Origin: Candidatus Babeliales bacterium
Lineage (GTDB): Bacteria > Babelota > Babeliae > Babelales > JANWKD01
Assembly: GCA_963701665.1 (NCBI GenBank)
Contig: OY969622.1
Location: 96,001 to 160,000, forward strand
Direction of reading: 5' to 3'
DNA length: 64,000 bases
The position numbers were made by a program, and so were the translations under genes. Each line of letters begins with the position of its first letter. Positions within the stretch are counted from its first letter, which is position 1. The notes under the pieces were generated by a model, which was not told the DNA's origin, ran no database searches, and was given only the letters and a program-made list of their open reading frames with translations. Shown here piece after piece: positions 8,895 through 49,562 of this stretch.

Positions 8895-11396
8895 TTAGCT
8901 TTCAATGTTTTGGCCGATAGTTGTTGGCCCAGCAACGCCGAAACCGCCGAAATTAGGGAAATTAATTTGATCTGTACCATTATTTGTGGCAACACAGTTA
9001 ACCGGGAAAAGAAAAAAAGTGGGTGATGGAGCATTGAAACCAATATTATTAAGCGTTGCGTTACAATCCGTAAAACTATAATTTTGACCGCTTATTATAC
9101 CAAAACCAGTACCACCATTCTGGCTCGCACTACAACCAATAAAAGTCTGTGAATTACCTACAAGATCAAAGCCATCTGTAACATTATATAATGCCGAACT
9201 ATATTGACCAGTAAACTCACCATTTTGTATGCTAAAACCTACTTCATTATGAGATGCAATACAATTTTCACAGGCAGTTTTCGTACCTTGTACTAAAAAT
9301 CCAGTTCCATTTGAATTTGTTGCACTACAATTAGCTAATAAAGTATCAGTAACACCGGTAAATATCGCAAAGCTGCTGCTATCATTGATAACACTTCCAT
9401 TACATTGGTCTGCTACACAATTGTATAGGGATACATTATCAGCGTCCACTACGTATCCATACGCAAAATTACCAATCTCATCTGCTGTTTGCAAAATTTG
9501 AATTGCTTGACAATCAATGAAAATATTATCATTTGCAGTTGTTTCAAAGCCAACTGCATTGCCGGCATCGTCTCCCGTTGGTGATACAGATATATTAGAT
9601 GCCACACAATTTTTAAATAGATTATCGACCCCGCTAGAAATAAAACCTACTGCATTTGTTAATCTACTTGATAAGCCTAACGCTTGACAATTTTGAACTA
9701 CGGAGCCCATGCAGGCTAACTGAAATCCTGCAGTATTTGTCCCAGCACCATTTGATGCAGCTAAGCAAGAATCAAATAAACAGTTCTGACCTGCGTCTAC
9801 GCGGAAGCAAACAAAAGCATTGCCATCGCAATCTTGAACGTCACATGATATAAATCTAAAGGTTATTGCATCGGTTGCATAAATACCTGCAAGGGTCCCT
9901 CCTGTTATCATATTGCTAACGGATATATTAACAAGATCCATACCAAATTGTTGTCCACCTTCTGCATTTAAGTAGACACCATAAACACTAGCATCGGTAA
10001 TACTGACATTAGAAATTTCTGTATATAAACATCCTCCTGCTAATTCCATACCAAAGGAGCCTGTGTTTGCAATATATACATTTTTGATGGTTGAATCGAT
10101 TAAAAAGCTAAACAGCATACCTATGCCCGTTGTATTTGCTACCGTTACACCATCCATGAGCAAATAATTGTCCCCATCACTGAAGAAACCTTGCGCAACA
10201 GTATCAATATAAATATTGAAGAATCTATTACCATTACCTGTTGAACTTATTGCGGTCAAACCTGGCGATTCAGTGATACTTATATCTTCAATTGTTGAAT
10301 TCGTTGTGTTATTAAGAACAATCCCCACCGATGAATTTGTTATTGTGCCATTTTTTATGGTAGTCCCTACGATTCCTGATCCTACTGTAACACCACCAGT
10401 CGTAATCGTGTGAGCGTTCAGATCGAGAGTGACATCATTTGCAGTTATCACAAATGAACCGCTAACATCATTTGCAAGACAATAATAACCACTTTGTGTT
10501 ATGGTTACTGGAGCTGTGAGGGATGTTGCAAAACATGCGGTAATAGCATTGAGTTCGGTAAATACGAAAGACAAATCGATACTTGCAATCGCGCTAAACG
10601 TTCCATCAAACCCATCTGCTAAGATGGTCCATGTTTGTTGAAATTCTGATGTAATATTGTTACAGCATGCGTTAAGTGCGGTAAATGTCCCATCAAACCC
10701 GTCTGCTAAAATGGTCCATGTTTGTTGAAATTCGCTCGTGATATTTTGACAACACGCGTTGAGCGCGGTAAATGTCCCTTGAAAATTCTCCTCAATAACA
10801 ACTGTCAATGTATCAACGAGCTCAGTCAAAATAGATACTGTAGAAATAAACGTACTTACCGTTTCTATTAAGATTTCACTTGAAAATATTGAAATGGTTA
10901 ACAGAACATCATTAAGTATTGAAAACGTTGTTATAAAATTATTTTCAATCTGCTGGCAACACTGATTCAAATTCGTCAGTATTACATTCAATAAATTTCT
11001 GATAGATGAAAGGTCACAAGCTCCAGGCCCAACAATAAATGGCCGCTGTTCTTCTCGCGGCGCTTTCAACGTATCATCATTTGGCAATTCATTAACTAAT
11101 ACTTGATATCGCGCAAGTAATAAAGGATATGCTAGTATTAAATCTTGTAACGGTAATGAATTAGCATTATGTTCAAGTCTTTGGCAACATCTCATTAATG
11201 CTTCAACAGCAGATTCATGATGTATGTAATCATCAAGAGTCAAATTTTCACATAAACCTTTAATAAAAGTTTTAATCGTTTCATCGACGGTAATTTCATT
11301 CTGCAATTCACTACTCGTTGGATCTGGCATGTTAGCGGCAATCACTACGCTAAAACTAAACATGATCATCAAAAACAAACTCGATAAAGACTTCAT
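8895..11396 (-). CDS. Secreted protein: pro-domain + Cys-Cys repeat stalk + right-handed parallel beta-helix
   Basis: RBS aaggag before MKSLSSLF; GPGACDLS; CC repeats; ITQSGYYCLANDV...DVTLDLNAHTI followed by many NC.A..N..GF beta-helix coils. Confidence 0.8.
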   Translation of the reverse strand: MKSLSSLFLMIMFSFSVVIAANMPDPTSSELQNEITVDETIKTFIKGLCENLTLDDYIHHESAVEALMRCCQRLEHNANSLPLQDLILAYPLLLARYQVLVNELPNDDTLKAPREEQRPFIVGPGACDLSSIRNLLNVILTNLNQCCQQIENNFITTFSILNDVLLTISIFSSEILIETVSTFISTVSILTELVDTLTVVIEENFQGTFTALNACCQNITSEFQQTWTILADGFDGTFTALNACCNNITSEFQQTWTILADGFDGTFSAIASIDLSFVFTELNAITACFATSLTAPVTITQSGYYCLANDVSGSFVITANDVTLDLNAHTITTGGVTVGSGIVGTTIKNGTITNSSVGIVLNNTTNSTIEDISITESPGLTAISSTGNGNRFFNIYIDTVAQGFFSDGDNYLLMDGVTVANTTGIGMLFSFLIDSTIKNVYIANTGSFGMELAGGCLYTEISNVSITDASVYGVYLNAEGGQQFGMDLVNISVSNMITGGTLAGIYATDAITFRFISCDVQDCDGNAFVCFRVDAGQNCLFDSCLAASNGAGTNTAGFQLACMGSVVQNCQALGLSSRLTNAVGFISSGVDNLFKNCVASNISVSPTGDDAGNAVGFETTANDNIFIDCQAIQILQTADEIGNFAYGYVVDADNVSLYNCVADQCNGSVINDSSSFAIFTGVTDTLLANCSATNSNGTGFLVQGTKTACENCIASHNEVGFSIQNGEFTGQYSSALYNVTDGFDLVGNSQTFIGCSASQNGGTGFGIISGQNYSFTDCNATLNNIGFNAPSPTFFLFPVNCVATNNGTDQINFPNFGGFGVAGPTTIGQNIES
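10596..10783 (-). repeat. Intragenic 87-bp (29-aa) tandem repeat
   Basis: GTFTALNACC.NITSEFQQTWTILADGFD occurs twice; nucleotide differences are mostly synonymous. Confidence 0.85.
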
Positions 11397-11510
11397 ATCA
11401 GGCTCCTTTTTAAAAACGACTCTTCTCAATTGTACCTACGTTACCGCACTCTAATCCGGGATTTCAATAAAATAAAAACGAAATATAGATAGCCCAAAAA
11501 GGTTATTCCA

Positions 11511-11535
11511 TTACCAGTTAAAATCTTTTTCATAG
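11511..11535 (-). pseudogene. Last codons (YEKDFNW*) of a deleted sulfotransferase copy
   Basis: ttaccagttaaaatctttttcatag matches the 3' end of 12096..12914 in the same flanking context. Confidence 0.75.
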
Positions 11536-11689
11536 ATCATGCCATTTCAAAAATCCAAAAATAAACCCAGAATTACGCAAAAAAGATCCAATACGGTGGG
11601 TTGTTGAAGGAACATTTTCTTGGATGAATCAATTCAGATGTGTTTTTATTCGTATTGTTTCCAGAAAAGTTTAGTTTGCAGACAAGCTC
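11536..11689 (+). mobile_element. IS5-family (IS1031/IS427-like) remnant: transposase C-terminus and one terminal inverted repeat
   Basis: Encodes RWVVEGTFSWMNQFRCVFIR, resembling the IS5 RWVVERTFSW..RFRRL motif; ends tttgcagacaagctc followed by ttaa. Confidence 0.75.
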
Positions 11690-11981
11690 TTAATTCTTGA
11701 TATCGCGCAAGTAATAAAGGATATGCTTGTATCAGATCTTGTAACGGTAATGAATTAGCATTATTTTCAATATGCTGGCAACATCTCTTTAATGCCTCAA
11801 CACCAGATTTATGATGTATGTAATCATCATGAGTTAAATTTTCACACAAGTCTTTAATAAAAGTTTTGATCGTTTCATCGACAGTAATTTCAGGTTCAGT
11901 AGTTGGATCTGGTAAGTTCCCGGCAATCACGGTGCTGAAACTAAACATTATCATCAAAAACAAACTCGATAAAGGCCTCAT
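11690..11981 (-). pseudogene. Truncated duplicate of the 5' end of the 8895..11396 gene
   Basis: Near-identical signal peptide and pro-domain; homology stops at ARYQEL, where the IS end (LRACLQT) begins. Confidence 0.85.
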
Positions 11982-12095
11982 ATCAGACTCCTTTTTAAAA
12001 AATAACCCCTTAATTGTGCCCACGTTGCCTTACTCTAATCTGGGATTTCAAGAAAGTAAAAACAAAAATATAGATAGCTCAAAAAGGTTATTCCG

Positions 12096-12914
12096 TTACC
12101 AATTAAAATCTTTTTCATAGCCAAGATCTATAAGCAATTGCCCAGCAACTTTTTTAAAAGCAGCTTTATGTCTTTCTAAGAAATGTTCTTTCCATGAGCC
12201 AATTTTGCCTTCACGAAACGTCGTCGTTCCGCCAAATAAGACTGACGAGATTTTTTTTGCTTCTTCTCTCGTAATAACATGGCCAAGGAAACTTGCTATT
12301 GCAATAATCTCATGTATCTGTGTTTCTTCATCGCCCCCACCTTCTTTACCTACTAATTTTTCAAATGTCGTCGCGTATACATTAGGTTCAAATCGCCATG
12401 GTAAATAGAGGTTATAAAATGATGCTACATCTTTTACATGAATCCATGGATTTTGTGCAAGAAATATTGTTGACCATAGCATACTTCCATCTGTTATCAA
12501 TGCATCAATAAGCTCATCTAAACTCCATTCATGCTGAGGAGCCCTCTCTATAGTTTTTATCCAAAAAGCTGCCGAAACAATTTGATCGCGTGGATCTCTA
12601 TAAATAAAAACTTTTTTAATACGTACATCGTTCAATTTTTTTATATTTTTTTCAACATAAATCGCATGAGCTATAAGAATAAAAAGCGGACTCGTCATAA
12701 GTATTTTAACCGCTTGATCATCGATCAAAAAGAATCTCTTACGCGGAATAGCCAACTGTGCATAGCAAATTTCTGTCAGCATCTTTAATAATAAATTAGT
12801 GCCACATTTGGGGATAGTGATTGCTGTTACACGATACATATCCTCAGAGCATTGTCCACCTAGTAATCCAACGTAAAGTATAACGATTCCCAGTATATTT
12901 TTTCTCATATTCAT
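12096..12914 (-). CDS. PAPS-dependent sulfotransferase with hydrophobic N-terminus (copy A)
   Basis: 5'-PSB TIPKCGT, 3'-PB YRDPRDQIVS, C-terminal FREGKIGSWKEHF. Confidence 0.88.
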   Translation of the reverse strand: MNMRKNILGIVILYVGLLGGQCSEDMYRVTAITIPKCGTNLLLKMLTEICYAQLAIPRKRFFLIDDQAVKILMTSPLFILIAHAIYVEKNIKKLNDVRIKKVFIYRDPRDQIVSAAFWIKTIERAPQHEWSLDELIDALITDGSMLWSTIFLAQNPWIHVKDVASFYNLYLPWRFEPNVYATTFEKLVGKEGGGDEETQIHEIIAIASFLGHVITREEAKKISSVLFGGTTTFREGKIGSWKEHFLERHKAAFKKVAGQLLIDLGYEKDFNW

Positions 12915-13009
12915 TATCTCCTTCTGATTAAACTGAGGACCGACAGCTCAAATCAAAGGCTATACTGATGGGAAAAAAATACAACCATAGTTAAAAGATT
13001 AATAAAATA

Positions 13010-13240
13010 ACGCGAATTCGATAAAAAAAATTATCAACTTATCACAAAAATATCTCGAAATGTCATCACGAGGAACGTAGTGACGTGGTGACCCAGAACT
13101 TTAATAAATTCCTTTTAATGAATTAATTTTATTATCTGGGTTGCCAACTCCGCTAAAAGCTGCATAGATTCGCAATGACAATTCTGTTTTTATATTATTT
13201 TCTTAGGCTAAATTTATGTTTTTATACATCGAATTCGCGT
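13010..13240. mobile_element. MITE with IS982-like ends carrying palindromic repeat copy 3 (13061..13180)
   Basis: Perfect TIR acgcgaattcgat / atcgaattcgcgt; 7-bp flanking direct repeat taaaata (13003..13009 and 13241..13247). Confidence 0.75.
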
Positions 13241-13417
13241 TAAAATAATAAGGTATTACAGGGAAACGAAGGGTGCGCAAACCAAAAAATTGTGAGTACT
13301 AAAGAAATGCTCGAGACTACGTTCCCTGATAAAAATGGGTATTATGGGATGAACGATTAAGCATTAAACGTGCTGATGTTCTTAAATATGATTAATGCTA
13401 ATGACACTTATTAATGA

Positions 13418-13444
13418 AGGTTCTCCTAATACCTAGGAGAACCT
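13418..13444. terminator. Hairpin downstream of CC-repeat gene
   Basis: aggttctccta-atacc-taggagaacct. Confidence 0.65.
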
Positions 13445-13466
13445 CATCATTTTGTGCCTATGAATG

Positions 13467-14384
13467 CTAACAGGTGCCAACATATGAATCAAGTATACAT
13501 GCACTATTACCTGCAAGATTGTTCAACCTCGTACCATCTGAAACAATAGAGCCATTTGTAGCCATAAGACCAGTAATCAAAGTACTAACTTCAAAGCAAC
13601 AAATAGAAAATGTTACTCTAAGGGTGTTAAAACAACCGGAAATGTCAGTTAATAACGTATTAAGCTCATTTAAATCAGTAGTCAAATCGAAAAATATAGT
13701 ATCAAAATTATTAGTAAGAATGCTGTAGGTGGAGTTAAACCCAAAAGCAATTACCGAATACGTACCTTGAAAATCATTGGCTACTTCTTCACAACAGGTA
13801 GTAAGATCATTTTGATTATGAGCTAAAACAGTAAAAGTCCCAGCAAAATCGTTCGTAATAGTTTCACAACAGACATTCAATATATTTTCTATAGCAGCTA
13901 ATACGGTAAGCGTTCCACTAAAATCAATAGAATTATTTGCACAACATTGCGTAAGCAACGGATATATTTCTTGACTAAGATAATTATATACACCAGCAAG
14001 ATCACATTGCAAAGGGCCGAAAAGCACACCGGGACTATAACGGGATTCTTCTGGAATCATTTCTAATATATGCATTATGTCAGAGAATGCTTCTTGAAGA
14101 GTATTTTCATCACATTCAGTTTTATTTTGCGTCAACTGTTCATAGCATCTCAATAAGCTCTCAGGGAGGCATTCTTCCTTTCGCTGTGCTATCTTATTTT
14201 CAACTATCGTAATTATAAGAGATTTAAGGTAAGAATCATCGGCAAGAACAGTTTTTTTTGTGGCATTGTTATTCTGTTGCACTAGTATTGATGCGCTATC
14301 ATCAGAGGTACTTTCAGCATGATACAAGATACCAATAATAATTAAAAATAATAAAAACAATCTAAAATTATTTTTATTTTTCAT
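13467..14384 (-). CDS. Secreted Cys-Cys repeat protein (paralogue 2)
   Basis: Signal peptide, pro-domain LLRCYEQL, GPLQCDL, CC every 25 aa, terminal Cys. Confidence 0.85.
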   Translation of the reverse strand: MKNKNNFRLFLLFLIIIGILYHAESTSDDSASILVQQNNNATKKTVLADDSYLKSLIITIVENKIAQRKEECLPESLLRCYEQLTQNKTECDENTLQEAFSDIMHILEMIPEESRYSPGVLFGPLQCDLAGVYNYLSQEIYPLLTQCCANNSIDFSGTLTVLAAIENILNVCCETITNDFAGTFTVLAHNQNDLTTCCEEVANDFQGTYSVIAFGFNSTYSILTNNFDTIFFDLTTDLNELNTLLTDISGCFNTLRVTFSICCFEVSTLITGLMATNGSIVSDGTRLNNLAGNSACILDSYVGTC

Positions 14385-14421
14385 GGAATTACTCCTTTTT
14401 TAAGATGCACTACCATTTTGT

Positions 14422-14452
14422 ATACTAAAAAGAAGAATAAATAGAATGCAAG
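14422..14452 (-). promoter_or_regulatory. Putative sigma70-like promoter shared with 17600..17630
   Basis: TTGCAT-18 nt-TAGTAT on the minus strand, upstream of the RBS. Confidence 0.55.
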
Positions 14453-14494
14453 ACATAGTAGAAGATAGAAAAAAATCCTTTTGCGATAAATAGA

Positions 14495-14516
14495 AAGGGG
14501 CACTTGTGTGCCCCTT
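14495..14516. terminator. Hairpin terminator
   Basis: aaggggcac-ttgt-gtgcccctt. Confidence 0.7.
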
Positions 14517-14541
14517 AAAACATTCTACTTACCGTGTTAAT

Positions 14542-15447
14542 TTAACAAGTATTAAACTCGAAAGCGGTGTTTAAGGTACAGTTAGTAAGATCTTCATAGC
14601 TAGAAATAATGTTATTAATAGTCTCATATGTAGTAATAAAATTATTATTAGCCTCGTTTAATAAATTTATCAGATCGTCGCAGCAATTAGCTATTTGGAA
14701 TTCTAAACTGGTGCAACAGGCGTCAAAAGTACCATTCATCTCTCCTACAACAGTATCTAACTCATTTACTAAAGGTATAATAACCCCAAATCCTGCATCT
14801 AATACACTATAAGTACTGTTAAATGCATATGCTAATGCCGAAAATGTGCCGCTGAATTCTGTAAATATCTCTGCACAACATTGGGTAAGAGTAGAATCTA
14901 ATTCGTAGAGCGCGCTAAATGTACCATTGAAGTCATTAGCAATAGTTGCGCAACACTGCGTAAGCGTATTCTCAAATTCACTCAATACGGTAAAGGTGCC
15001 ATTGAAATCAGTAGTCTCGTTATTACAACAAACAACAAGTGCGTCATAGAACTTTCTTAATAATTGATAAATTCCGGACAAATTACATGTTGGTGGTCCT
15101 GCTAAAACATTGGGCACATGTTCGCGAGGGGATTTGTCTGTCATAGATTGTAATTTAATTATTAGTTCGGGTAGAACATTTTTTAATGTTTCTGGCGCAC
15201 AAGTATTGTTTTCATAAAGCTCTTGGTAGCATGCCAATAACTCAGGAGAAATATTTCTCTCAGAATCCTCTAAAGCGTGCTCAACAAAAAAGGTTACCAA
15301 TGTTTTTACTATTTCATGCTCAACTATTATAGTATAACACGGGTCCAAACTGCTTTTCGTATCTGCACCTTGTAAACTTACTACACAATTTTGCGTTAAT
15401 AATAGTATAAGAAAAAGTTTTAAAAAATTTCTCACACGCATAAACAT
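14542..15447 (-). CDS. Secreted Cys-Cys repeat protein (paralogue 3)
   Basis: Signal peptide, LLACYQEL, GPPTCNLS, LTQCC...DFNGTF repeats, terminal Cys. Confidence 0.85.
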   Translation of the reverse strand: MFMRVRNFLKLFLILLLTQNCVVSLQGADTKSSLDPCYTIIVEHEIVKTLVTFFVEHALEDSERNISPELLACYQELYENNTCAPETLKNVLPELIIKLQSMTDKSPREHVPNVLAGPPTCNLSGIYQLLRKFYDALVVCCNNETTDFNGTFTVLSEFENTLTQCCATIANDFNGTFSALYELDSTLTQCCAEIFTEFSGTFSALAYAFNSTYSVLDAGFGVIIPLVNELDTVVGEMNGTFDACCTSLEFQIANCCDDLINLLNEANNNFITTYETINNIISSYEDLTNCTLNTAFEFNTC

Positions 15448-15524
15448 GATACCCCTCTTTTTAGAAAATTGTCTCTTTCATAGTCTCAATCCCTTATGCT
15501 CAAAAATTATGTATGCCACATCTA

Positions 15525-16562
15525 TTAGCCACATGTATGGGCTGTTGGACAGAAAGGATCCGGTACAAGGTGTGTACTTGCTACGCAAAAGTTGTTACAT
15601 TCATGACCTAAGAATGATGCAACAATACTCACAGCGTTTGCTACCTGACTACCCAGCGCAAGCAAAGATTCAAACAATGATGCACAACAATTATCGATTT
15701 GAGTTTCAAAGTTAGTGCAATTTGATGTTAGTGTGGTTAGAACATCATTCAACACTATTGTTATAGCATCGAGCAGTGTAACTGTCCCATTAAAATCTGC
15801 CGTAATTATTGTTTCAGTGCTATTAAATCCATAGTTTAAAGCACTATATGTGCCGCTAAGATCATAGAATTCTACCGCGCAACAATTTGTTAATGTAGTC
15901 TCAAATTCCGCTAAGGCAGAAAATGTACCGTTAAAATCATTAGTAATATTCTCACAGCATATTGTTAAAGTATTTTGAATATAGGCTAAGTCAGAAAAAA
16001 TCATGCCAAAATCTATCGTGTTATTATTACAGCATTGCGTCAGTAAGCTTTCTATGGTCATAAGCAGGTCAATAACTATGGAAGTATTACATAACAATGG
16101 CCCAACGATGGGATGTATTTTTGGATGCAATACCTTTGTATTCGTATCTGCCAAAACATCCAGACTTACTTTTATCACATTACGTAGATCTTCTATTAAA
16201 AAATCGTTTTTATTATTTGATATCTGCTCATAGCATTGCAAGAATCCGTGGGGAAGAGCATTTGTCAAACCTTGCTCTAGAGCATTTTCAACAATAGATG
16301 TTATATAGGATTTGAAAATAGGGTCTTCAACTTTTACATAGATTACATCAGAATTAATTGTTTCCAAAAATTGTATATTTAGTTCATCACCGAGCTTAGA
16401 ATATTCGGCCATGAAATTATCTTTATATGCTTCATCAAATTCCTTAGAGGCTTCTACGAGGAATTCACGACCATCATTTTGCATCATGCCTTGTATTGGC
16501 CACGGATAATGTTGCAGTATTAAAATTGTAAAAAAGAGATTTATACACTTTCCATATTCCAT
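15525..16562 (-). CDS. Secreted Cys-Cys repeat protein (paralogue 4)
   Basis: Signal peptide, FLQCYEQI, GPLLCNTS, CC repeats, Cys-rich tail. Confidence 0.85.
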   Translation of the reverse strand: MEYGKCINLFFTILILQHYPWPIQGMMQNDGREFLVEASKEFDEAYKDNFMAEYSKLGDELNIQFLETINSDVIYVKVEDPIFKSYITSIVENALEQGLTNALPHGFLQCYEQISNNKNDFLIEDLRNVIKVSLDVLADTNTKVLHPKIHPIVGPLLCNTSIVIDLLMTIESLLTQCCNNNTIDFGMIFSDLAYIQNTLTICCENITNDFNGTFSALAEFETTLTNCCAVEFYDLSGTYSALNYGFNSTETIITADFNGTVTLLDAITIVLNDVLTTLTSNCTNFETQIDNCCASLFESLLALGSQVANAVSIVASFLGHECNNFCVASTHLVPDPFCPTAHTCG

Positions 16563-16620
16563 CTAATTTTACTCCTTTTTTCCCTATTTTTACTTGCATC
16601 ATAAAAACAATTTTATCAAT

Positions 16621-17565
16621 CTAGGGTGTACCCCCACAAATTACGCAAGATATGTCGAAGTTTCCACAAACTATGCAACTCGTTGCCGCTGCAAGTTCTT
16701 GGGCATAATCTGTATTCTCCATCATAGTAATTGATTCACTTAAGATAGCACTTGCACTCGATATTAATTCATTACAACAATTAGTAAGCTGGCTTTCAAG
16801 GCTACCACAGCAAGCAATTATTTGGTCAAGAACGGTATTTGCTAGACTTATGTCTGTATCTAACAAAACTTCTACCGTATTAAAATCTGAAGCTAAACGA
16901 GGGAACAATGTATTGATTCCATTGGCAATAACCGTAAATGTACCGATAAAAGCATTATTAAAATCTATACAACATGTAGAAAGCGTATTTTGTATAGCGT
17001 TTATCACGGTAAAAGTACCCTCAAAGTCTGCTGTTGCATTTGCACAACATTGCGTCAAGGTGCCTTGCAAATCATTGAGCTCCGCAAAAATTGCATCAAA
17101 CGAGATGGTAGCCGCATTACAACACTGCGTAAGAAGTCTATAGAGATGGTTAAGCAGACCAATAATCTCAGAAAGATCACATCCTGCAGGCCCTGCAAGA
17201 GGACGTTGCGTTTGGGGGCGAGATGCTTTTACCATTCGATTTAATCCAGCCGTTAAATCAGGAAAAACATCAATAAGATCTTTTACTAAAAACTCTTTCT
17301 CATCTTTACAGACTTGTTCATAGCAGTTTAGCAAACCATTTGAAAGTTGCTCCTGCGCATTATCTTGTAATGCATTTTCAACTAAACTAATCACATAGGA
17401 TTTAAAATGAGGATTATCAACAACGATGCTCTCCTGCACAATGTCACCATGTTGCAGCGCAGCTATTGCAAGATTATCGAATATTATTTCACTTTTCACA
17501 CAGAAAGAAATATGTGGTATTATAAAAAATATAGATAAAAACCATGATTTATTCTTTAATCTCAT
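16621..17565 (-). CDS. Secreted Cys-Cys repeat protein (paralogue 5)
   Basis: Signal peptide, LLNCYEQV, GPAGCDLS, CC repeats, tail CIVC...CVIC. Confidence 0.85.
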   Translation of the reverse strand: MRLKNKSWFLSIFFIIPHISFCVKSEIIFDNLAIAALQHGDIVQESIVVDNPHFKSYVISLVENALQDNAQEQLSNGLLNCYEQVCKDEKEFLVKDLIDVFPDLTAGLNRMVKASRPQTQRPLAGPAGCDLSEIIGLLNHLYRLLTQCCNAATISFDAIFAELNDLQGTLTQCCANATADFEGTFTVINAIQNTLSTCCIDFNNAFIGTFTVIANGINTLFPRLASDFNTVEVLLDTDISLANTVLDQIIACCGSLESQLTNCCNELISSASAILSESITMMENTDYAQELAAATSCIVCGNFDISCVICGGTP

Positions 17566-17599
17566 AAAATTCTCCCCTTTAAAATATACTGTTGTTTTA

Positions 17600-17630
17600 A
17601 TACTAAAAAGAAGAGTAAATATAATGCAAG
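17600..17630 (-). promoter_or_regulatory. Putative sigma70-like promoter shared with 14422..14452
   Basis: atactaaaaagaagagtaaatataatgcaag on +, i.e. TTGCAT-18 nt-TAGTAT on -. Confidence 0.55.
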
Positions 17631-17672
17631 AATTTTTAAGATTACTTCATGACAACGACCAAAAATTTGCCT

Positions 17673-18491
17673 TTACCAACCGAAGTCTTTTTCATAACCA
17701 AGATCTATAAGCAGTTGCCCTGCAACTTCTTTAAAAGCAATTTTATGTCTTTCTAAGAAATGTTCTTTCCATGAACCAATCTTCCCTTCACGAAATGTCG
17801 ATGTACCCCCAAATAATTCGTCGGCAATTTTTTTTGCTTGTTCCCAAGTAAGAGGTTTACCTAAGTGATTTCCTATTGCGATAATTTCTTTTATTTGTTC
17901 ATCCTCACTACCACCTCCTTGTTTTCCGATTAATTTTTCAAACGTTGTGGTATATACATCTGGCTCAAATCGCCATGGTAAATATATATTATAAAATGAA
18001 GCTATATCCGTTATTTGAAGCCAGGGATCGTCAGACAAAAATACTTTGGACCATAAGAACCCGGTGTTCATTATCAATGAATCAATAAGAACATCTAAAT
18101 CCCATGTTTTTTCCTCTATCCTTTCTATAGTCTTTAGCCAAAAAGCTGCAGAGACCACTTGATCACGAGGATCTCGAAATATAAAAACTTTTTTTATTCG
18201 CTCATTACTCATTTTTTTAATATTATCATTAACATAAATTGCATGTCCTACGAGCAACCACCTTGGATCCATCATCAGCATTTTTATGGCATTGGCATCA
18301 ATTAAAAAAAATCTTCTACGAGGAATAGCTACCTTCGCATGAGACATCATTAAAAGCATTTTCGCTAATAGCATGGTACCACATTTAGGGATAGTTATTT
18401 CTGCGACACGATATAAATCAGGATATTGCTGAGCGCATAATCCAACATTAATTATGAATAATGCTATTTTTACTACGTTTTTTATACTCAT
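17673..18491 (-). CDS. PAPS-dependent sulfotransferase (copy B)
   Basis: TIPKCGT, FRDPRDQVVS and FREGKIGSWKEHF motifs; hydrophobic N-terminus. Confidence 0.88.
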   Translation of the reverse strand: MSIKNVVKIALFIINVGLCAQQYPDLYRVAEITIPKCGTMLLAKMLLMMSHAKVAIPRRRFFLIDANAIKMLMMDPRWLLVGHAIYVNDNIKKMSNERIKKVFIFRDPRDQVVSAAFWLKTIERIEEKTWDLDVLIDSLIMNTGFLWSKVFLSDDPWLQITDIASFYNIYLPWRFEPDVYTTTFEKLIGKQGGGSEDEQIKEIIAIGNHLGKPLTWEQAKKIADELFGGTSTFREGKIGSWKEHFLERHKIAFKEVAGQLLIDLGYEKDFGW

Positions 18492-18611
18492 GCCTTCTTA
18501 CCCTTCATTGTAGCTACATATTCTTTTTTAATTTTAGTTTTATGAAAAAAAACGTAGATGAAGCAAGAAAAAAGCTCTAATTTCATGAAGGTCGATGATA
18601 AAGCTTATTCA

Positions 18612-19424
18612 TTACCAGTTAAAATCCTTTTCGTAACCGAGATCTATAAGTAGTTGCCCTGCAACCGCTTTAAAAGCAATTTTATGTCTTTCTAAGAAAT
18701 GTTCTTTCCATGATCCAATCTTTCCTTCACGAAATGTCAATGTACCCCCAAATAATTTGTCGGCGATTTTTTTTGCTTCTTCCCAGGTAAGGGATTTACC
18801 TAGGTGATTTGCTATTGCAATAATTTCTTTTATTTGTTCATCCTCGCTACCGCCTCCTTGTTTTCCGACTAACTTTTCAAATGTTGTGGTATATACATCC
18901 GGTTCAAATCGCCATGGTAAATATATGGTATAAAATGAAGTTATATCAGTTATTTGAAGCCATGGATCATCTGAGCAAAGTACTTCAGACCATAAGGGCC
19001 CAGTATTCATGATCAGTAGATCAATAAGCACATCTAAATCCCATGTGCTTTCTGGCATCCTATCTATAGTTTTTATCCAAAAAGCTGCAGAGACCACTTG
19101 ATCACGCGGATCTCGAATTATAAAAACTTTTTTTATTTGTTCGTTACTTATTTTTTTAATATTATCATCAACATAGATTGCATGTGCTATGAGCAACCAC
19201 ACTTTACTTTCCATAAACATTTGCATGGCATCATCATCAATTAAAAAAAAACTTCTACGAGGAATAGGTAATTTTGCATGAGTCATCATTAAAAGCATTT
19301 TCAGTAGCATGTTGGAACCACATTTAGGAATAGATATTCCTACAACACGATATAAATCACCGTTCGCACATAATCCAAAATGAATTATGAATAATGCTAT
19401 TTTTACTATGTTTTTTATACTCAT
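18612..19424 (-). CDS. PAPS-dependent sulfotransferase (copy C)
   Basis: SIPKCGS, IRDPRDQVVS and FREGKIGSWKEHF motifs; close paralogue of copy B. Confidence 0.88.
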   Translation of the reverse strand: MSIKNIVKIALFIIHFGLCANGDLYRVVGISIPKCGSNMLLKMLLMMTHAKLPIPRRSFFLIDDDAMQMFMESKVWLLIAHAIYVDDNIKKISNEQIKKVFIIRDPRDQVVSAAFWIKTIDRMPESTWDLDVLIDLLIMNTGPLWSEVLCSDDPWLQITDITSFYTIYLPWRFEPDVYTTTFEKLVGKQGGGSEDEQIKEIIAIANHLGKSLTWEEAKKIADKLFGGTLTFREGKIGSWKEHFLERHKIAFKAVAGQLLIDLGYEKDFNW

Positions 19425-26357: not shown

Positions 26358-27332
26358 CTAAGATATACATTCATTCTGCTTAGATATACTATGGCTTTGG
26401 TAATTTTGTATAGACATTTTATACCACTCAAGCGTTCTTTGCATACCTTCTTCCAGAGAGATTTTCGCCTTCCATCCAAGCGCGTGAATTTTATCAACAT
26501 TCAGCAATTTGCGCGGTGTACCATCAGGTTTTGTGGTATCAAACACAAGTTCACCCCGAAATCCAACGATGTCTTTAATAAGATTAGCAAGATCTGCGAT
26601 GGAACAATCGTACCCAACGCCAACGTTAATTGGTTCTGATGCATTGTACTGCTGCATTAAAAAAAGAGAAGCATCGGCAAGATCATCAACGTATAAAAAT
26701 TCACGAAACGCGCGACCAGTGCCCCAAATTGGCACAGAACGCGCGTTTGTACTATAGGCATTATAAATTTTTGCAATCAGCGCGGGTACCACATGCGAGG
26801 TTTCAAGATTAAAATTATCTCCCGGGCCATATAAATTGGTTGGCATGCATGAAATAAAGTTAGTGCCGTGTTGTCTGTTATATGATTGGCAAAGATTAAT
26901 GCCAGCAATTTTTGCAATCGCATACGGTTCATTTGTTTTTTCAAGTGTGCCCGTTAATAAATATTCTTCACTAATAGGCTGAGGGCACAGGCGCGGGTAA
27001 ATGCAGGAAGAGCCCAAGAATAATAATTTTTTTACGCCGTGTTGATAGGCCGCGTGAATAACATTCGCTGCTATCATGATGTTGTCGTAAATAAAATCTG
27101 CAGGAAAATCATTATTTGCTTTTATACCGCCAACGCGCGCAGCAGCAAGGAAAACGTACGCCGGTTTTTCTTGCGCAAAAAACTCGTTAGTCGCGCGTTG
27201 ATCGCACAAGTCGAGCGTTTGCACTGTTCTGTATATCAAATTTTTGTAGCCTTGCGCGTGCAATGCTCGCATCAATGCTGAACCTACCAATCCGGTGTGG
27301 CCGGCGACATAAATTTTTTCATGTTTATTCAT
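26358..27332 (-). CDS. fcl: GDP-L-fucose synthase
   Basis: [31 protein letters not shown] and MPTNLYGP motifs. Confidence 0.97.
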
Positions 27333-28438
27333 AAACTATCCACGGAATATGGTGATGTGCCACGAGGCTGTTGAAACAAATTTTCTTGGTTTTCTTGAGG
27401 CGGCTTAACAAGCTTACAATCATGATCAACCATAAGCGTCACTAATCCATCAAAATCCATTTTGGGATACCAGCCCAATGTACGTTGTGCTTTGCGTGAA
27501 TCACCAATGAGAAGATCAACTTCTGTTGGTCTGAAATAATGTTCATCAATACGCACTAATGATTTTTTTGTTTTTGTATCGATACCGCACTCGTCTATGC
27601 CAGTTCCTTGCCATATAAGATTGATATCAACATGAGCAAATGCTTTTTCTATGAACTCGCGCACGGAATGTGTTTTGCCGGTGGCAATAACAAAATCTTC
27701 AGGAACATTTTGTTGCAGCATGAGCCACATCGCTTCGACATAATCTTTTGCATATCCCCAATCACGTTTTGCATTGAGATTGCCAACATATAAACATTCC
27801 TGAAGTCCATATTTTATGCGCGCAACAGCTCGAGTAACTTTTCGTGTCAAAAATGTTTCACCACGCAAGGGCGATTCATGATTAAAAAGAATTCCGTTGC
27901 AGGCATACATAGAATACGCTTCACGATAATTTACGGTAATCCAATAGGCGTACAATTTAGCAGCTGCATACGGTGATCGAGGGCAAAAGGGTGTTGTTTC
28001 TGATTGAGGGACTTCAAAACTGTTACCATATAATTCACTCGTTGATGCTTGATAAAACCTCGTTTTTGAAGTCAAACCGAGCAGCCGTATCGCTTCTAAG
28101 ATGCGTAAGGTACCTAATCCATCAGCATTGGCGGTATACTCAGGCGTTTCAAAAGAAACATGCACATGACTTTGTGCCGCTAAATTATACACTTCATCCG
28201 GTTGAATTTCCTGAATAAGTCTGATTATATTTGTCGAATCAGTAACATCACCATAATGTAAAATAAAATTTGCTGTGTCATACTCATGCGCATCTTGATA
28301 AATATGATCAATACGCGATGTGTTAAATGAAGAGGAGCGGCGTTTTAGCCCATGAACTTGATAACCTTTTTGCAGCAAAAATTCCGATAAATAGGCGCCA
28401 TCTTGGCCTGTAACACCCGTTATTAAAGCTTTCTTCAT
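27329..28438 (-). CDS. gmd: GDP-mannose 4,6-dehydratase
   Basis: [34 protein letters not shown] and LFNHESP motifs. Confidence 0.98.
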
Positions 28439-47187: not shown

Positions 47188-47331
47188 GAAAACTCTCCAT
47201 TAATTTTCATAGTAGTATAGACTAAGCATACATATATGCGCTGGCGTAAAGCCATAATTTATTCATAACATTAATTTTTTGCGCAACATATGCATAAAAA
47301 AATTATTTTGAAAACCAAGGAACCGTGCAGT

Positions 47332-48450
47332 ATGCAACAAATAAGAGTAGGCGTTTTGATGGGAGGTAAATCTATTGAACGAGAAGTCTCGTTTAACTCA
47401 GGACGCACGGTATGCGATCATCTTGATGCACATCGCTATGATATAGTTCCTCTGTTTCAAGATAGCCATGGAAAGCTTTTTATTTTACCATGGCGTTTTT
47501 TGCACCGCGGCAAAATTAGTGATTTTGAACATCGCCTCAATACAGAAGCAGAGCAGATCACGTGGGATTCTTTAAAAGAAAGAGTTGATTTTATCTATAA
47601 TGCTATGAACGGTCGTTATGGCGAAGATGGATCCTTACAAGGACTTCTTGAAATTTTGGGAATTCCCTATCTTGGTTCGAAGGTGTACGCGAGTGCACTC
47701 GGTATGGATAAATTTTTGCAAAAAGATTTTTTGCGCATGCATAACATTACTGTTCCGCGCGACGTTCGCATTAAACAGAGTGACATTGCTTTATCGCATG
47801 ATCTTACTCAGCATTGTGTTGAGCTTTTAGGCAATGCAGATATTTCCTTTCCTTGCATCATTAAACCGCGTCATGAAGGATCGAGCCTTGGCGTTACGGT
47901 GGTAAAAAGGAAAGAAGAATTAGCTGAAGCAATAAAGAAAGCAGCGCACATTGATCCCCATAAAACACAAGATGTTTTGATCGAAGAACTCATTGAAGGT
48001 ATGGAATTTACCTGCATTCTTTACACCGATCAAAATGGGCAAGCAGTTGCGATGCCACCAACAGAAATTATAAAAGATCAGGGCGCTGATGTATTTGATT
48101 ATACTCAGAAATATATGCCCGGACGCGCGACAAAATTTACACCCGCGCGTTGTGATGCGCACGCGACTAATCTTATTCAACAAACGTGCGTTCAAGTTAT
48201 GCATGCACTCGACATGCAAACACTCGTTCGCATCGACGGGTTTCTCACGCGCAATGCTAACGTTGTTATTATTGATCCTAATTCACTCTGCGGTATGGCA
48301 CCTTCCTCCTTCGTTTTTTGCCAAGCTGCACAAATCGGCATGAATCATGCCAATTTAATCAATCATGTTATTGAATCAGAATTAAGGCAGTATAAAACAT
48401 GTACCGTTTTTTCATCGTTACAACAGAAAGAATACACATGGACTCATTAA
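47332..48450 (+). CDS. ddl: D-alanine--D-alanine ligase-like ATP-grasp protein 1
   Basis: GG.S.EREVS, G.YGEDG, KP..EGSS.G, FDY..KY and RIDG motifs; divergent IIDPNSLCGM. Confidence 0.85.
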   Translation: MQQIRVGVLMGGKSIEREVSFNSGRTVCDHLDAHRYDIVPLFQDSHGKLFILPWRFLHRGKISDFEHRLNTEAEQITWDSLKERVDFIYNAMNGRYGEDGSLQGLLEILGIPYLGSKVYASALGMDKFLQKDFLRMHNITVPRDVRIKQSDIALSHDLTQHCVELLGNADISFPCIIKPRHEGSSLGVTVVKRKEELAEAIKKAAHIDPHKTQDVLIEELIEGMEFTCILYTDQNGQAVAMPPTEIIKDQGADVFDYTQKYMPGRATKFTPARCDAHATNLIQQTCVQVMHALDMQTLVRIDGFLTRNANVVIIDPNSLCGMAPSSFVFCQAAQIGMNHANLINHVIESELRQYKTCTVFSSLQQKEYTWTH

Positions 48451-49562
48451 AAAAAATTCGCGTCGCCGTTCTTCTTGGCGGTAGATCAAATGAAAAAGAA
48501 ATTTCTCTTGAATCTGGCAGAAATGTTGTTTACAAATTATCGCCGCAAAAATATACCGCGTTGCCTCTGTTTGTGAACACTGCTATGCATCTTTATCATA
48601 TTACCAATCAACAACTTGTTTTAAATTCCACAAAAGAAATAGAAAAATCATTGGTTCCAGAACAAAAAATCCTATGGCACACGCTTTCGGAAATTGCGGA
48701 TTTTGTTTTCATTGCCTTACATGGCGGCGAGGGCGAAAATGGCTGCGTGCAAGGTGCATTACAAATGCTTGATATGCCGTATAATGGAGCAGGCGTATTC
48801 ACCAGTGCTCTGTGCATGGATAAATACCGCACGAATGCATTATTAGCTGCTAAAGGATTTCACGTACCGCGTTCGTTATTTATTGCCAAAGAAACATGGC
48901 ATGAACGCAGAGAAGAAACGCTAGCAAACATTCAAAAAACATTTACATTACCCTGCATAATCAAACCACATGATGATGGCTGCAGTGTTTTTGTTTCAAA
49001 AATTACAAATTATAATGATCTTTCAGAATCTATTGATGCCTTTTTTACAACAGGAAAAACGCACGCATTGGTTGAAGAATTTATTCAAGGAATGGAGTTG
49101 ACCGTGGGCGTCGTTGGCAATGAAATGCCGCACGCGCTTACACCGAGCCAAGCAATAGCTGCGCACGGAATTTTATCGATCGAAGAAAAATTTTTGCCGG
49201 GAGCTGGAGAAAATCAAACACCCGCACCGTTGCCATCTGCAACGCTCGAGTTTGTAAAAAAAACAATGGAAAACGTTTATGCAGCAATCGATTGCAAGGG
49301 ATACGCGCGCATTGATTGTTTTTATCAAACTGCAGAACAAAGTACAGCGCAAAAAGAACGTGTCGTAATTTTGGAAATCAATACACTTCCAGGGTTAACG
49401 CCGGCCACCTGCATTTTTCATCAAGCAGCTGAAGAAGACATTAGGCCCATGGATTTTATTGATATGATTGTAACCCTTGGTTTTGAGTATCACCAAAAGC
49501 AGATGGGCACCATTTTCCCACAAGAAAAAACTGCTGCGCGAGAGAAACACAAACATTTATAA
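48438..49562 (+). CDS. ddl: D-alanine--D-alanine ligase-like ATP-grasp protein 2
   Basis: GG.SNEKEIS, LHGGEGENG, YARID and LEINTLPGLT motifs. Confidence 0.88.
   Translation: MDSLKKIRVAVLLGGRSNEKEISLESGRNVVYKLSPQKYTALPLFVNTAMHLYHITNQQLVLNSTKEIEKSLVPEQKILWHTLSEIADFVFIALHGGEGENGCVQGALQMLDMPYNGAGVFTSALCMDKYRTNALLAAKGFHVPRSLFIAKETWHERREETLANIQKTFTLPCIIKPHDDGCSVFVSKITNYNDLSESIDAFFTTGKTHALVEEFIQGMELTVGVVGNEMPHALTPSQAIAAHGILSIEEKFLPGAGENQTPAPLPSATLEFVKKTMENVYAAIDCKGYARIDCFYQTAEQSTAQKERVVILEINTLPGLTPATCIFHQAAEEDIRPMDFIDMIVTLGFEYHQKQMGTIFPQEKTAAREKHKHL

Follow-up and report, generated by a model that had tools for sequence, protein, structure and literature searches.

Three sulfotransferase genes in a Babeliales genome

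We analyzed a stretch of 64,000 nucleotides (hereafter the window, with positions counted from its first letter) from Candidatus Babeliales bacterium (assembly GCA_963701665.1, contig OY969622.1, positions 96,001 to 160,000), and in particular three genes, termed ST1, ST2 and ST3, that likely encode sulfotransferases using 3′-phosphoadenosine 5′-phosphosulfate (PAPS) and that begin with a predicted export signal, the leader (Table 1). The Babeliales (Dependentiae) genome, labeled G000 here, is a single contig (C1) of 1,337,192 bases with 37% GC and is 93.6% complete. The loci with informative titles that are closest to the three sulfotransferases belong to Babeliales/Dependentiae. A search for nucleotide transporters, suggested by a preliminary description of the window, returned four TLC nucleotide translocases, which would fit an intracellular parasite; the bacterium is likely a parasite.

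The preliminary description had named three PAPS-type sulfotransferases, and all three genes are indeed intact open reading frames (ORFs), each scoring above the curated PF00685 cut-off of 22 bits. For ST1, the spacing to the ribosome-binding site (RBS) is better for a start at Met3 than at the first methionine. ST3 is a younger duplicate of ST2, with 81% amino acid identity and a synonymous divergence (dS) of 0.40, and a fourth paralogue lies elsewhere in the genome (C1:1121776-1122597; 43-50% identity to the window copies, PF00685 48.7 bits).

Table 1. Features of the sulfotransferase region; positions refer to the window
Feature	Position	Strand	Remarks
ST1, SULT-fold sulfotransferase with leader	12096..12914	-	272 aa ORF (270 aa from Met3); PF00685 31.7 bits
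ST1 predicted signal peptide	12846..12914	-	residues 1-23, MNMRKN followed by ILGIVILYVGLLGGQCS, ending GGQC-S; heuristic
ST1 PSB loop PKCGT (Lys36)	12798..12812	-	sequence
ST2, SULT-fold sulfotransferase with leader	17673..18491	-	272 aa; PF00685 25.7 bits
ST2 predicted signal peptide, ending GLCA	18432..18491	-	residues 1-20; cut GLCA-Q; heuristic
ST2 PSB loop PKCGT	18375..18389	-	sequence
ST3, SULT-fold sulfotransferase with leader	18612..19424	-	270 aa; PF00685 25.3 bits
ST3 predicted signal peptide, ending GLCA	19365..19424	-	residues 1-20; cut GLCA-N; heuristic
ST3 PSB loop PKCGS	19314..19328	-	sequence
Four short Cys-Cys repeat proteins	13467..17565	-	305, 301, 345 and 314 aa; between ST2 and ST1
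Relic sulfotransferase 3′ end (last seven codons and stop)	11511..11534	-	inside a 440-bp tandem duplication
Truncated copy of the beta-helix gene's N-terminus	11646..12023	-	125 aa ORF; 76% over 111 aa

Fold, conserved residues and selection

Sequence, modeled fold and residues together indicate that ST1-ST3 are intact, constrained PF00685 genes and likely PAPS-dependent sulfotransferases. An AlphaFold2 model of ST2, computed on an alignment of 113 sequences, reached a pLDDT of 93.7, and cytosolic SULTs ranked first among its Foldseek matches, with SULT2A1 at the top (E 3.4e-8, TM 0.64). A wide structure search with the same model returned SULT7A1 (Z 17.5, rmsd 3.0, 215 aligned residues), with structural matches that begin near residue 24-25, and at lower ranks TPST (Z 13.2), heparan sulfotransferases (about 11.5) and kinases (9.5 or less). 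The predicted model is thus closer to the SULTs (17.5) than to the TPST class (13.2), and Sulfotransfer_3 (PF13469) was not found in the genome.

The residues conserved in the family align with the 5′-phosphosulfate-binding (PSB) loop, the catalytic histidine, the arginine and serine of the 3′-phosphate-binding site (3′-PB) and the C-terminal RKGxxGDWK of the SULTs. In ST2 these are K36, H83, R106, S114 and REGKIGSWK at residues 234-242. Across the 113 aligned members, G38, H83 and G236 are invariant, K36 and R106 occur in 112 and S114 and W241 in 111; with G239 and K242 included, each of these residues is kept in 105-113 members. K36, H83, R106, S114 and the glycines and lysine of GxxGxxK (G236/G239/K242) are present in all three window proteins. 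The mature parts of ST1-ST3 give pairwise dN/dS ratios of 0.20, 0.19 and 0.27, and these low values indicate purifying selection.

Two further features of the proteins had been pointed out beforehand. The PSB loops do read PKCGT, PKCGT and PKCGS, as described, but a special PKCG variant had to be rejected since the small residue at this position varies within the family (C in 58, S in 37, A in 11 and T in 7 of 113) and cysteine is its most frequent state. The description of near-invariant C-termini and divergent middle regions is borne out, with 92-95% identity among the window copies over the last 39 aligned codons against 43-78% in columns 125-170 and 55-64% in columns 55-100. The C-terminal near-invariance is unremarkable, however, because this is the PAPS-binding end and is conserved across the whole family (mean column conservation of 0.69-0.84 from residue 221 onward in the 113 members). 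Gene conversion is a superfluous explanation for the same reason; C-terminal dS, from 39 codons only, is 0.48-0.93, which is lower than over the whole gene in both ST1 pairs and higher in ST2-ST3.

The stretch corresponding to the cap loop comprises five residues in 84 of the 113 members (10 did not parse) and about 25 in SULT2A1, as counted by eye, and a stretch this short suits a large acceptor. Together with the predicted leader, it sets the proteins apart from typical cytosolic small-molecule SULTs. The PAPS-independent arylsulfate sulfotransferases (ASST/AstA) were rejected as well, as the window proteins match PF00685 only and PF05935 was not found in the genome. An NCBIfam search returned no family name for the window proteins, and an ESM Atlas search with ST2 gave PF00685 or unnamed clusters only.

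Leaders in the window and across the family

Leaders were called with a rule combining charge and hydropathy (threshold of 1.9), which is a rough heuristic and not a standard predictor. Under this rule the N-termini of the window proteins look as first described: basic residues, a hydrophobic stretch and then GGQC-S, GLCA-Q or GLCA-N. They carry a net charge of +2 ahead of the hydrophobic h-region, 14-17 uncharged residues and a 10-residue hydropathy of 2.5-2.7, so that ST1-ST3 would conform to the pattern of substrates of Sec and signal peptidase I (SPase I), with a basic n-region, an h-region, small residues and a polar mature start. Neither ST2 nor ST3 contains an ATG, GTG or TTG between its first codon and the PSB loop; therefore, the leader must be translated. 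Purine-rich RBS-like stretches precede both genes, and residues 3-18 of ST2 are helical in the predicted model.

For the family, we collected the best 120 of 592 relatives from a protein search and added the three window proteins (123 in total; P0002 duplicates ST1). Leaders are found in 110 of the 120 members of this sample that have the PSB motif. Ahead of the h-region their net charge averages +1.78, behind it +0.20; positive charge lies ahead of it in 101 of the 110 leaders and exceeds the charge behind it in 85, the reverse being true for 6. As this arrangement predicts an inside N-terminus and an outside domain, even if the leader is not cleaved, it disfavors an anchor with a cytoplasmic active site. 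Lipoproteins processed by SPase II were also considered and rejected, as a lipobox fits only one of the 110 leaders and the cysteine of ST1 is a proline in its closest homologue (P0003).

Among 75 named loci, we counted 13 Babeliales-titled, 28 chlamydial and 8 free-living ones, and left out 26 that were unnamed, ambiguous or unparsed. Inspected by eye, leaders are present in 13/13 Babeliales-titled and 26/28 chlamydial loci and in 0/8 of the free-living ones, which are cyanobacterial, Chloroflexi, Bacilli, Pseudomonadales and Thermoplasmata loci. By eye and by the heuristic, the leader thus appears to be family-wide in Dependentiae and environmental Chlamydiae.

PAPS synthesis in this genome and its relatives

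The absence of PAPS-synthesis genes from the window, noted at the outset, extends to the whole genome: profile searches found none for adenosine 5′-phosphosulfate (APS) kinase, ATP sulfurylase, CysD or CysH in G000, while control genomes scored, so that the proposed search for cysD, cysC and sat came back empty. Searching the genome by tblastn with 12 proteins of the Sat/CysC cluster yielded P-loop scraps only. CysQ/Inositol_P and the UAA transporter (PF08449) were likewise not found in G000.

We then surveyed 214 Dependentiae genomes, each at least 85% complete. The sulfotransferase family occurs in 35 of them and the ATP sulfurylase Sat in 12, 11 of which are family-bearing. The same 11 genomes have an APS kinase, leaving 24 of the 35 without one, and in all 11 the frame is a Sat-CysC fusion in which a leader precedes the PUA domain. 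In the Dependentiae examined, the family is never paired with a leaderless PAPS synthase. Leader-bearing Sat-CysC loci are found in Dependentiae and environmental Chlamydiae (L094:3623-5335, L101-L111, L171, L174-L176 and L178), and one chlamydial protein passes the equivalog model NF004040 from residue 33. An APS kinase is present in 7 of 27 family-bearing chlamydial genomes, six of these being fusions that carry a leader and the seventh a weak gene without one. The free-living family-bearing genomes have an APS kinase in 8/8 cases, and it is leaderless in all seven inspected. New here is this genome-wide count, which ties the sulfotransferase family to absent or leader-tagged PAPS synthesis and contrasts it with free-living genomes.

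Two kinds of matches were set aside. Weak APS-kinase matches in 34 of 61 relatives (E<=0.001) cover the P-loop only (profile positions about 2-50, with two reaching 109-128) and were not counted; in later searches the cut-off was E<=1e-12. Matches to PF01507 in 2 of the 35 genomes (G033 and G159) were rejected as PAPS synthesis because neither genome has an APS kinase. In the twelfth Sat-bearing genome (G037, C1:966655-970113; L020/L112), Sat and CysC are separate ORFs, the PUA part is absent from the Sat frame and a different leader-bearing sulfotransferase-like gene adjoins Sat; this is perhaps a broken or mis-assembled fusion. Family members can also be numerous, with eight in tandem beside Sat-CysC in G122 (C16:19851-31006) and ten matches in G067.

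Genomic context: glycan enzymes and export machinery

Clustering 792 ORFs from 86 loci revealed as recurring neighbors FkbM methyltransferases, glycosyltransferases (GT) of the GT4, DXD/GT32 and GT2 types, NAD-dependent epimerases/dehydratases and Sat-CysC. Most of these also have leaders (FkbM 20/24, GT4 24/29, GT32-type 12/13, GT2 9/10, Gmd/Fcl/RmlB-type 10/16). The free-living homologues, too, lie mostly amid polysaccharide genes, as judged by eye.

An internal control is provided by the two GDP-mannose 4,6-dehydratases (Gmd) of this genome, which are 74% identical. The Gmd in the window (27329-28438) is leaderless, with position 1 of the model at residue 2, while in the second (C1:1122600-1123730; L007:10601-11731) the domain starts at residue 33 behind a 31-residue leader. 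The leader-bearing Gmd sits between the fourth sulfotransferase and three glycosyltransferase genes similar to STELLO (PF03385) with leader-like starts (L007:11736-14767). In the 30 best Gmd loci, which are from Dependentiae, leaders are present on 12 of 32 Gmd frames; two genomes hold both forms side by side.

Further leader-bearing glycan enzymes of this genome comprise two GT32, a GT10, an FkbM, a Methyltransf_24 and three RXYLT1-like proteins. One operon (C1:377344-382693; L127:7345-12694) encodes FkbM, two DXD/GT32, GT2 and GT10, all with leader-like starts, that of the GT2 from an internal start codon. At C1:1135054-1140693 (L129:4055-9694), the leader-bearing Methyltransf_24 adjoins the three RXYLT1-like genes, two of which carry a fused methyltransferase domain. 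A heparinase II/III-like protein (C1:927913-929811; L128:9914-11812) has no leader. In G004, a transposase has inserted into the family member (L028:4651-6393) and split it, another transposase lies immediately upstream, and STELLO-like genes flank the split gene. The export machinery of G000 includes SecA, encoded in the window, two SPase I, two secretins, GspF/G and two Omp85. According to the available passages of two studies, Babeliales lack most lipopolysaccharide (LPS) genes and have kept a type II system (PMC4776705, PMC4378268).

Cys-Cys repeat proteins and other neighbors

The four short genes between ST2 and ST1 belong to a leader-bearing Cys-Cys repeat family whose members share an N-terminal domain that ends in GP(x)CD/N and whose long forms reach about 1550 aa or have a beta-helix ending. 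Further members lie at 8895-11429 of the window and at C1:824470-842000 and C1:1293600-1298769. These proteins look like surface fibers. The short forms have no Pfam name, and an ESM Atlas search with one Cys-Cys protein gave no usable match. NxS/T sequons occur at 1.6-3.0 per 100 aa in the beta-helix protein and in all four short proteins except CC4 (0.6), against a background of 0.74.

ST1-ST3 and the copy in genome G001 (L026) form a clade (SH-aLRT 97) in a quick tree only, which left out L040, L047, L076 and loci without a parsed PSB motif. The G001 copy also adjoins four short Cys-Cys genes, and its flanks differ from those in the window. Among the 214 Dependentiae, 20 have the Cys-Cys family and 4 of these also carry the sulfotransferase family. 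With only 4 of 20 shared, the Cys-Cys family is at most a local partner of the sulfotransferases, and its short members are candidates for local acceptors or carriers, not general ones. Cys-Cys proteins are not supported as acceptors of the sulfotransferase family in general, since only 4 of the 35 family-bearing genomes have them, although the linkage to the ST1-ST3 clade is seen in two genomes of the same genus.

The 440-bp tandem duplication (11097-11535 matching 11691-12120 at 85%) includes the sulfotransferase 3′ end as well as the beginning of the beta-helix gene. Elsewhere in the window are two tandem D-Ala-D-Ala ligase genes (47290-49562).

Proposed mechanism and alternatives

Because they carry predicted export signals and no PAPS-synthesis genes were found, the three sulfotransferases likely act outside the cytoplasm on host-made PAPS. 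The reading we favor, and to which we give about an even chance, is that these SULT-fold enzymes are exported by Sec and use host-made PAPS to sulfate a glycan probably built by likewise exported glycosyltransferases. Sec export and cleavage by SPase I would deliver them to the periplasm, and onward passage to the vacuole or host cytosol would be possible via the type II system. The receiving compartment would exchange small nucleotides with the host (PAPS is about the same size as ATP) and hold host ATP, PAPS, S-adenosylmethionine and nucleoside-diphosphate sugars, much like the mitochondrial intermembrane space. The bacterium studied here would take PAPS ready-made from its host, while relatives with leader-tagged Sat-CysC would make it in that compartment from host ATP and sulfate. 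The acceptor would be a bacterial surface glycan; the three window copies may serve glycans of the neighboring Cys-Cys proteins or different sugar positions, and diversified acceptors among the copies are plausible. In a broader form, for which the chances seem to us slightly short of even, an entire pathway for sulfated glycans would have left the cytoplasm in Dependentiae and environmental Chlamydiae, comprising sulfotransferases, glycosyltransferases, methyltransferases, enzymes of nucleotide-sugar synthesis and, in some lineages, PAPS synthase. It would operate in a periplasm or vacuole that receives nucleotides from the host, as a bacterial "outside Golgi", and G000 would be the end state, taking host PAPS itself.

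Several observations weigh against the favored reading. Leader-like starts occur in 572 of the 1199 genes of this genome, 464 of them without a further hydrophobic segment, so a leader alone is not rare here; this share is in line with the 44% of coding sequences with signal peptides given for Chromulinavorax in the available text of PMC6561590. Of 45 housekeeping proteins picked by hand, the rule also marked 4, each because of its first beta-strand as judged by eye, and it missed the leader-bearing Gmd (1.89 against the threshold of 1.9). With only 4 of 45 housekeeping proteins marked, leaders are frequent in the lineage yet not on ordinary cytoplasmic enzymes. Dependentiae rank low for predicted extracellular proteins in the available part of PMC11495043. 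Two chlamydial loci depart from the pattern (L074 shows no leader and L076 did not parse), as does the family-bearing chlamydial genome G222 with its leaderless, weaker APS kinase. In the enzymes, leucine replaces the adenine-stacking tryptophan of the SULT PSB loop, and the structures nearest to ST2 are small-molecule SULTs. Of the four paralogues in this genome, only the fourth has glycosyltransferases as neighbors, not the window copies. The four TLC translocases could in principle import PAPS. Finally, the absences are to be read as "not found", since G000 is 93.6% complete and many relatives are fragmented metagenome-assembled genomes, and related genomes are not independent in the counts.

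The proteins might be host-directed effectors that pass through Sec and the type II system, which is present in G000, into the host cytosol and there sulfate sterols, phenolics, host glycans or proteins with host PAPS. Their nearest structures would suit such a role, as would the distance of the window copies from glycosyltransferases and their divergent middles, and the cytoplasm of the amoeba is the presumed destination of Babela ankyrin proteins that bear leaders (available text of PMC4378268). We nevertheless consider this unlikely: most family members and the free-living relatives sit amid glycan-building genes, the cap loop that would enclose a small acceptor is short, and a leader-tagged PAPS synthase would be of little use in a host cytosol that makes PAPS itself and suits a separate compartment. 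It is rather improbable that the window copies are dedicated to the neighboring Cys-Cys proteins, sulfating them directly on Tyr/Ser/Thr or via attached glycans. Here the clade of ST1-ST3 and the G001 copy lies beside four short Cys-Cys genes in both genomes despite different flanks, sequons are abundant in the beta-helix protein and all short proteins but CC4, and TPST is among the fold matches (Z 13.2); yet the linkage is confined to two genomes of one genus, 31 of the 35 family-bearing genomes have no Cys-Cys match, 16 of the 20 Cys-Cys genomes lack the sulfotransferase family, and in G003 and G004 a distance of 50 kb or more separates the sulfotransferase from the listed Cys-Cys matches.

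The preliminary description had left open whether the enzymes are membrane-anchored or exported and supplied with host PAPS. The second possibility gains support from the 24 of 35 family-bearing genomes without APS kinase, the 11 leader-tagged Sat-CysC proteins and the leaderless free-living homologues with APS kinase in 8/8 genomes. The first, in which an uncleaved anchor would keep the catalytic domain on the bacterium's cytoplasmic side and a nucleotide translocase would bring in PAPS, we regard as very doubtful. It would draw on the four TLC translocases (the available text of PMC4776705 describes some paralogues with altered substrate residues in TM6), on the gonococcal Lst, which uses host CMP-Neu5Ac within the cytoplasm (PMC8092323, in part), and on 32 of the 110 leaders being hydrophobic enough over 19 residues to span the membrane, which itself counts against the favored reading. 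The distribution of charge around the h-region, however, predicts the opposite topology, and cytoplasmic Sat-CysC and Gmd would need no leader, yet 11/11 and 12/32 of the frames, respectively, have one. Least of all do we expect proteins that no longer transfer sulfate and instead bind sulfated ligands or PAP/PAPS, or hydrolyze host PAPS. That 24 of 35 genomes cannot make the donor and that the G004 copy is split by insertion elements would agree with this; but Lys, His, Arg and Ser of the catalytic site hardly vary, and the Ser is, according to the available part of PMC13426309, the residue that holds back PAPS hydrolysis, and 11 of the 12 Sat-bearing genomes have the sulfotransferase family.

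PAPS-dependent sulfation in bacteria is regarded as a cytoplasmic process, and the periplasmic sulfotransferases known so far do without PAPS. If the favored reading of exported enzymes fed with host PAPS is true, these parasites run nucleotide-driven chemistry outside their own cytoplasm on host metabolites, and PAPS joins the list of scavenged host cofactors. It also suggests a route by which the LPS-poor Babeliales might build a sulfated coat and offers a possible role for the ATP sulfurylase of Babela, listed as unexplained in the available text of PMC4378268. What is surprising is less the three window genes themselves than the pattern seen across genomes.

Comparison with known systems

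Published accounts of the Dependentiae secretome (PMC6561590, PMC4378268, PMC4776705) share with our genome abundant signal peptides, a conserved type II system and a paucity of LPS genes; their available passages do not mention sulfotransferases or exported glycan enzymes. We found no report of exported PAPS-dependent sulfotransferases in Dependentiae or Chlamydiae in the literature, although subscription papers and supplements may bear on this point. ASST/AstA (PF05935) resembles ST1-ST3 in being a sulfotransferase with a signal peptide but is an unrelated family that uses aryl sulfate donors, according to the available part of PMC13426309. The Lst of Neisseria gonorrhoeae likewise is a transferase kept without its own donor pathway and supplied by the host; in the available text it is shown to be cytoplasmic with an imported donor (PMC8092323), whereas ST1-ST3 are predicted to be exported.

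The fold of the window proteins matches that of Golgi lumenal sulfotransferases (TPST 5wri, HS 3-OST 3bd9, NDST 1nst) at Z 11-13, and both would use PAPS made across a membrane and act on macromolecular acceptors. Golgi sulfotransferases are type II anchored and supplied by SLC35B transporters; the fold of ST1-ST3 is nearer to cytosolic SULTs, and the PF08449 transporter was not found in G000. To our knowledge, the enzymes that make the donor for the glycogen synthase GlgA of Chlamydia trachomatis are not leader-tagged. GlgA and other glycogen enzymes of this species are secreted to a host-derived inclusion lumen and use the host donor UDP-glucose, but they depend on type III secretion and build a storage polymer, as opposed to the Sec leaders, sulfation and surface glycan proposed here (PMC4829429, available text).

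With cytosolic SULTs (PF00685; SULT2A1, PDB 4ifb/1efh; SULT7A1, 5x2b), the window proteins share the fold (Z 17.5, TM about 0.6), the PSB lysine, the catalytic histidine, the 3′-phosphate Arg/Ser and the C-terminal RxGxxGxWK. They differ in their structural identity of only 15-21%, the leader, the short cap loop and Leu for the PSB Trp, and in being encoded by a bacterium without detected PAPS synthesis. The free-living leaderless homologues of cyanobacteria, Chloroflexi, Bacilli and archaea (L053, L065, L068, L071, L086, L095, L096 and L099) belong to the same family, at 27-37% identity, and group apart in the tree with weak support (SH-aLRT 83) and one chlamydial long branch among them. They have no leader, in contrast to ST1-ST3, and an APS kinase in every one of their eight genomes.

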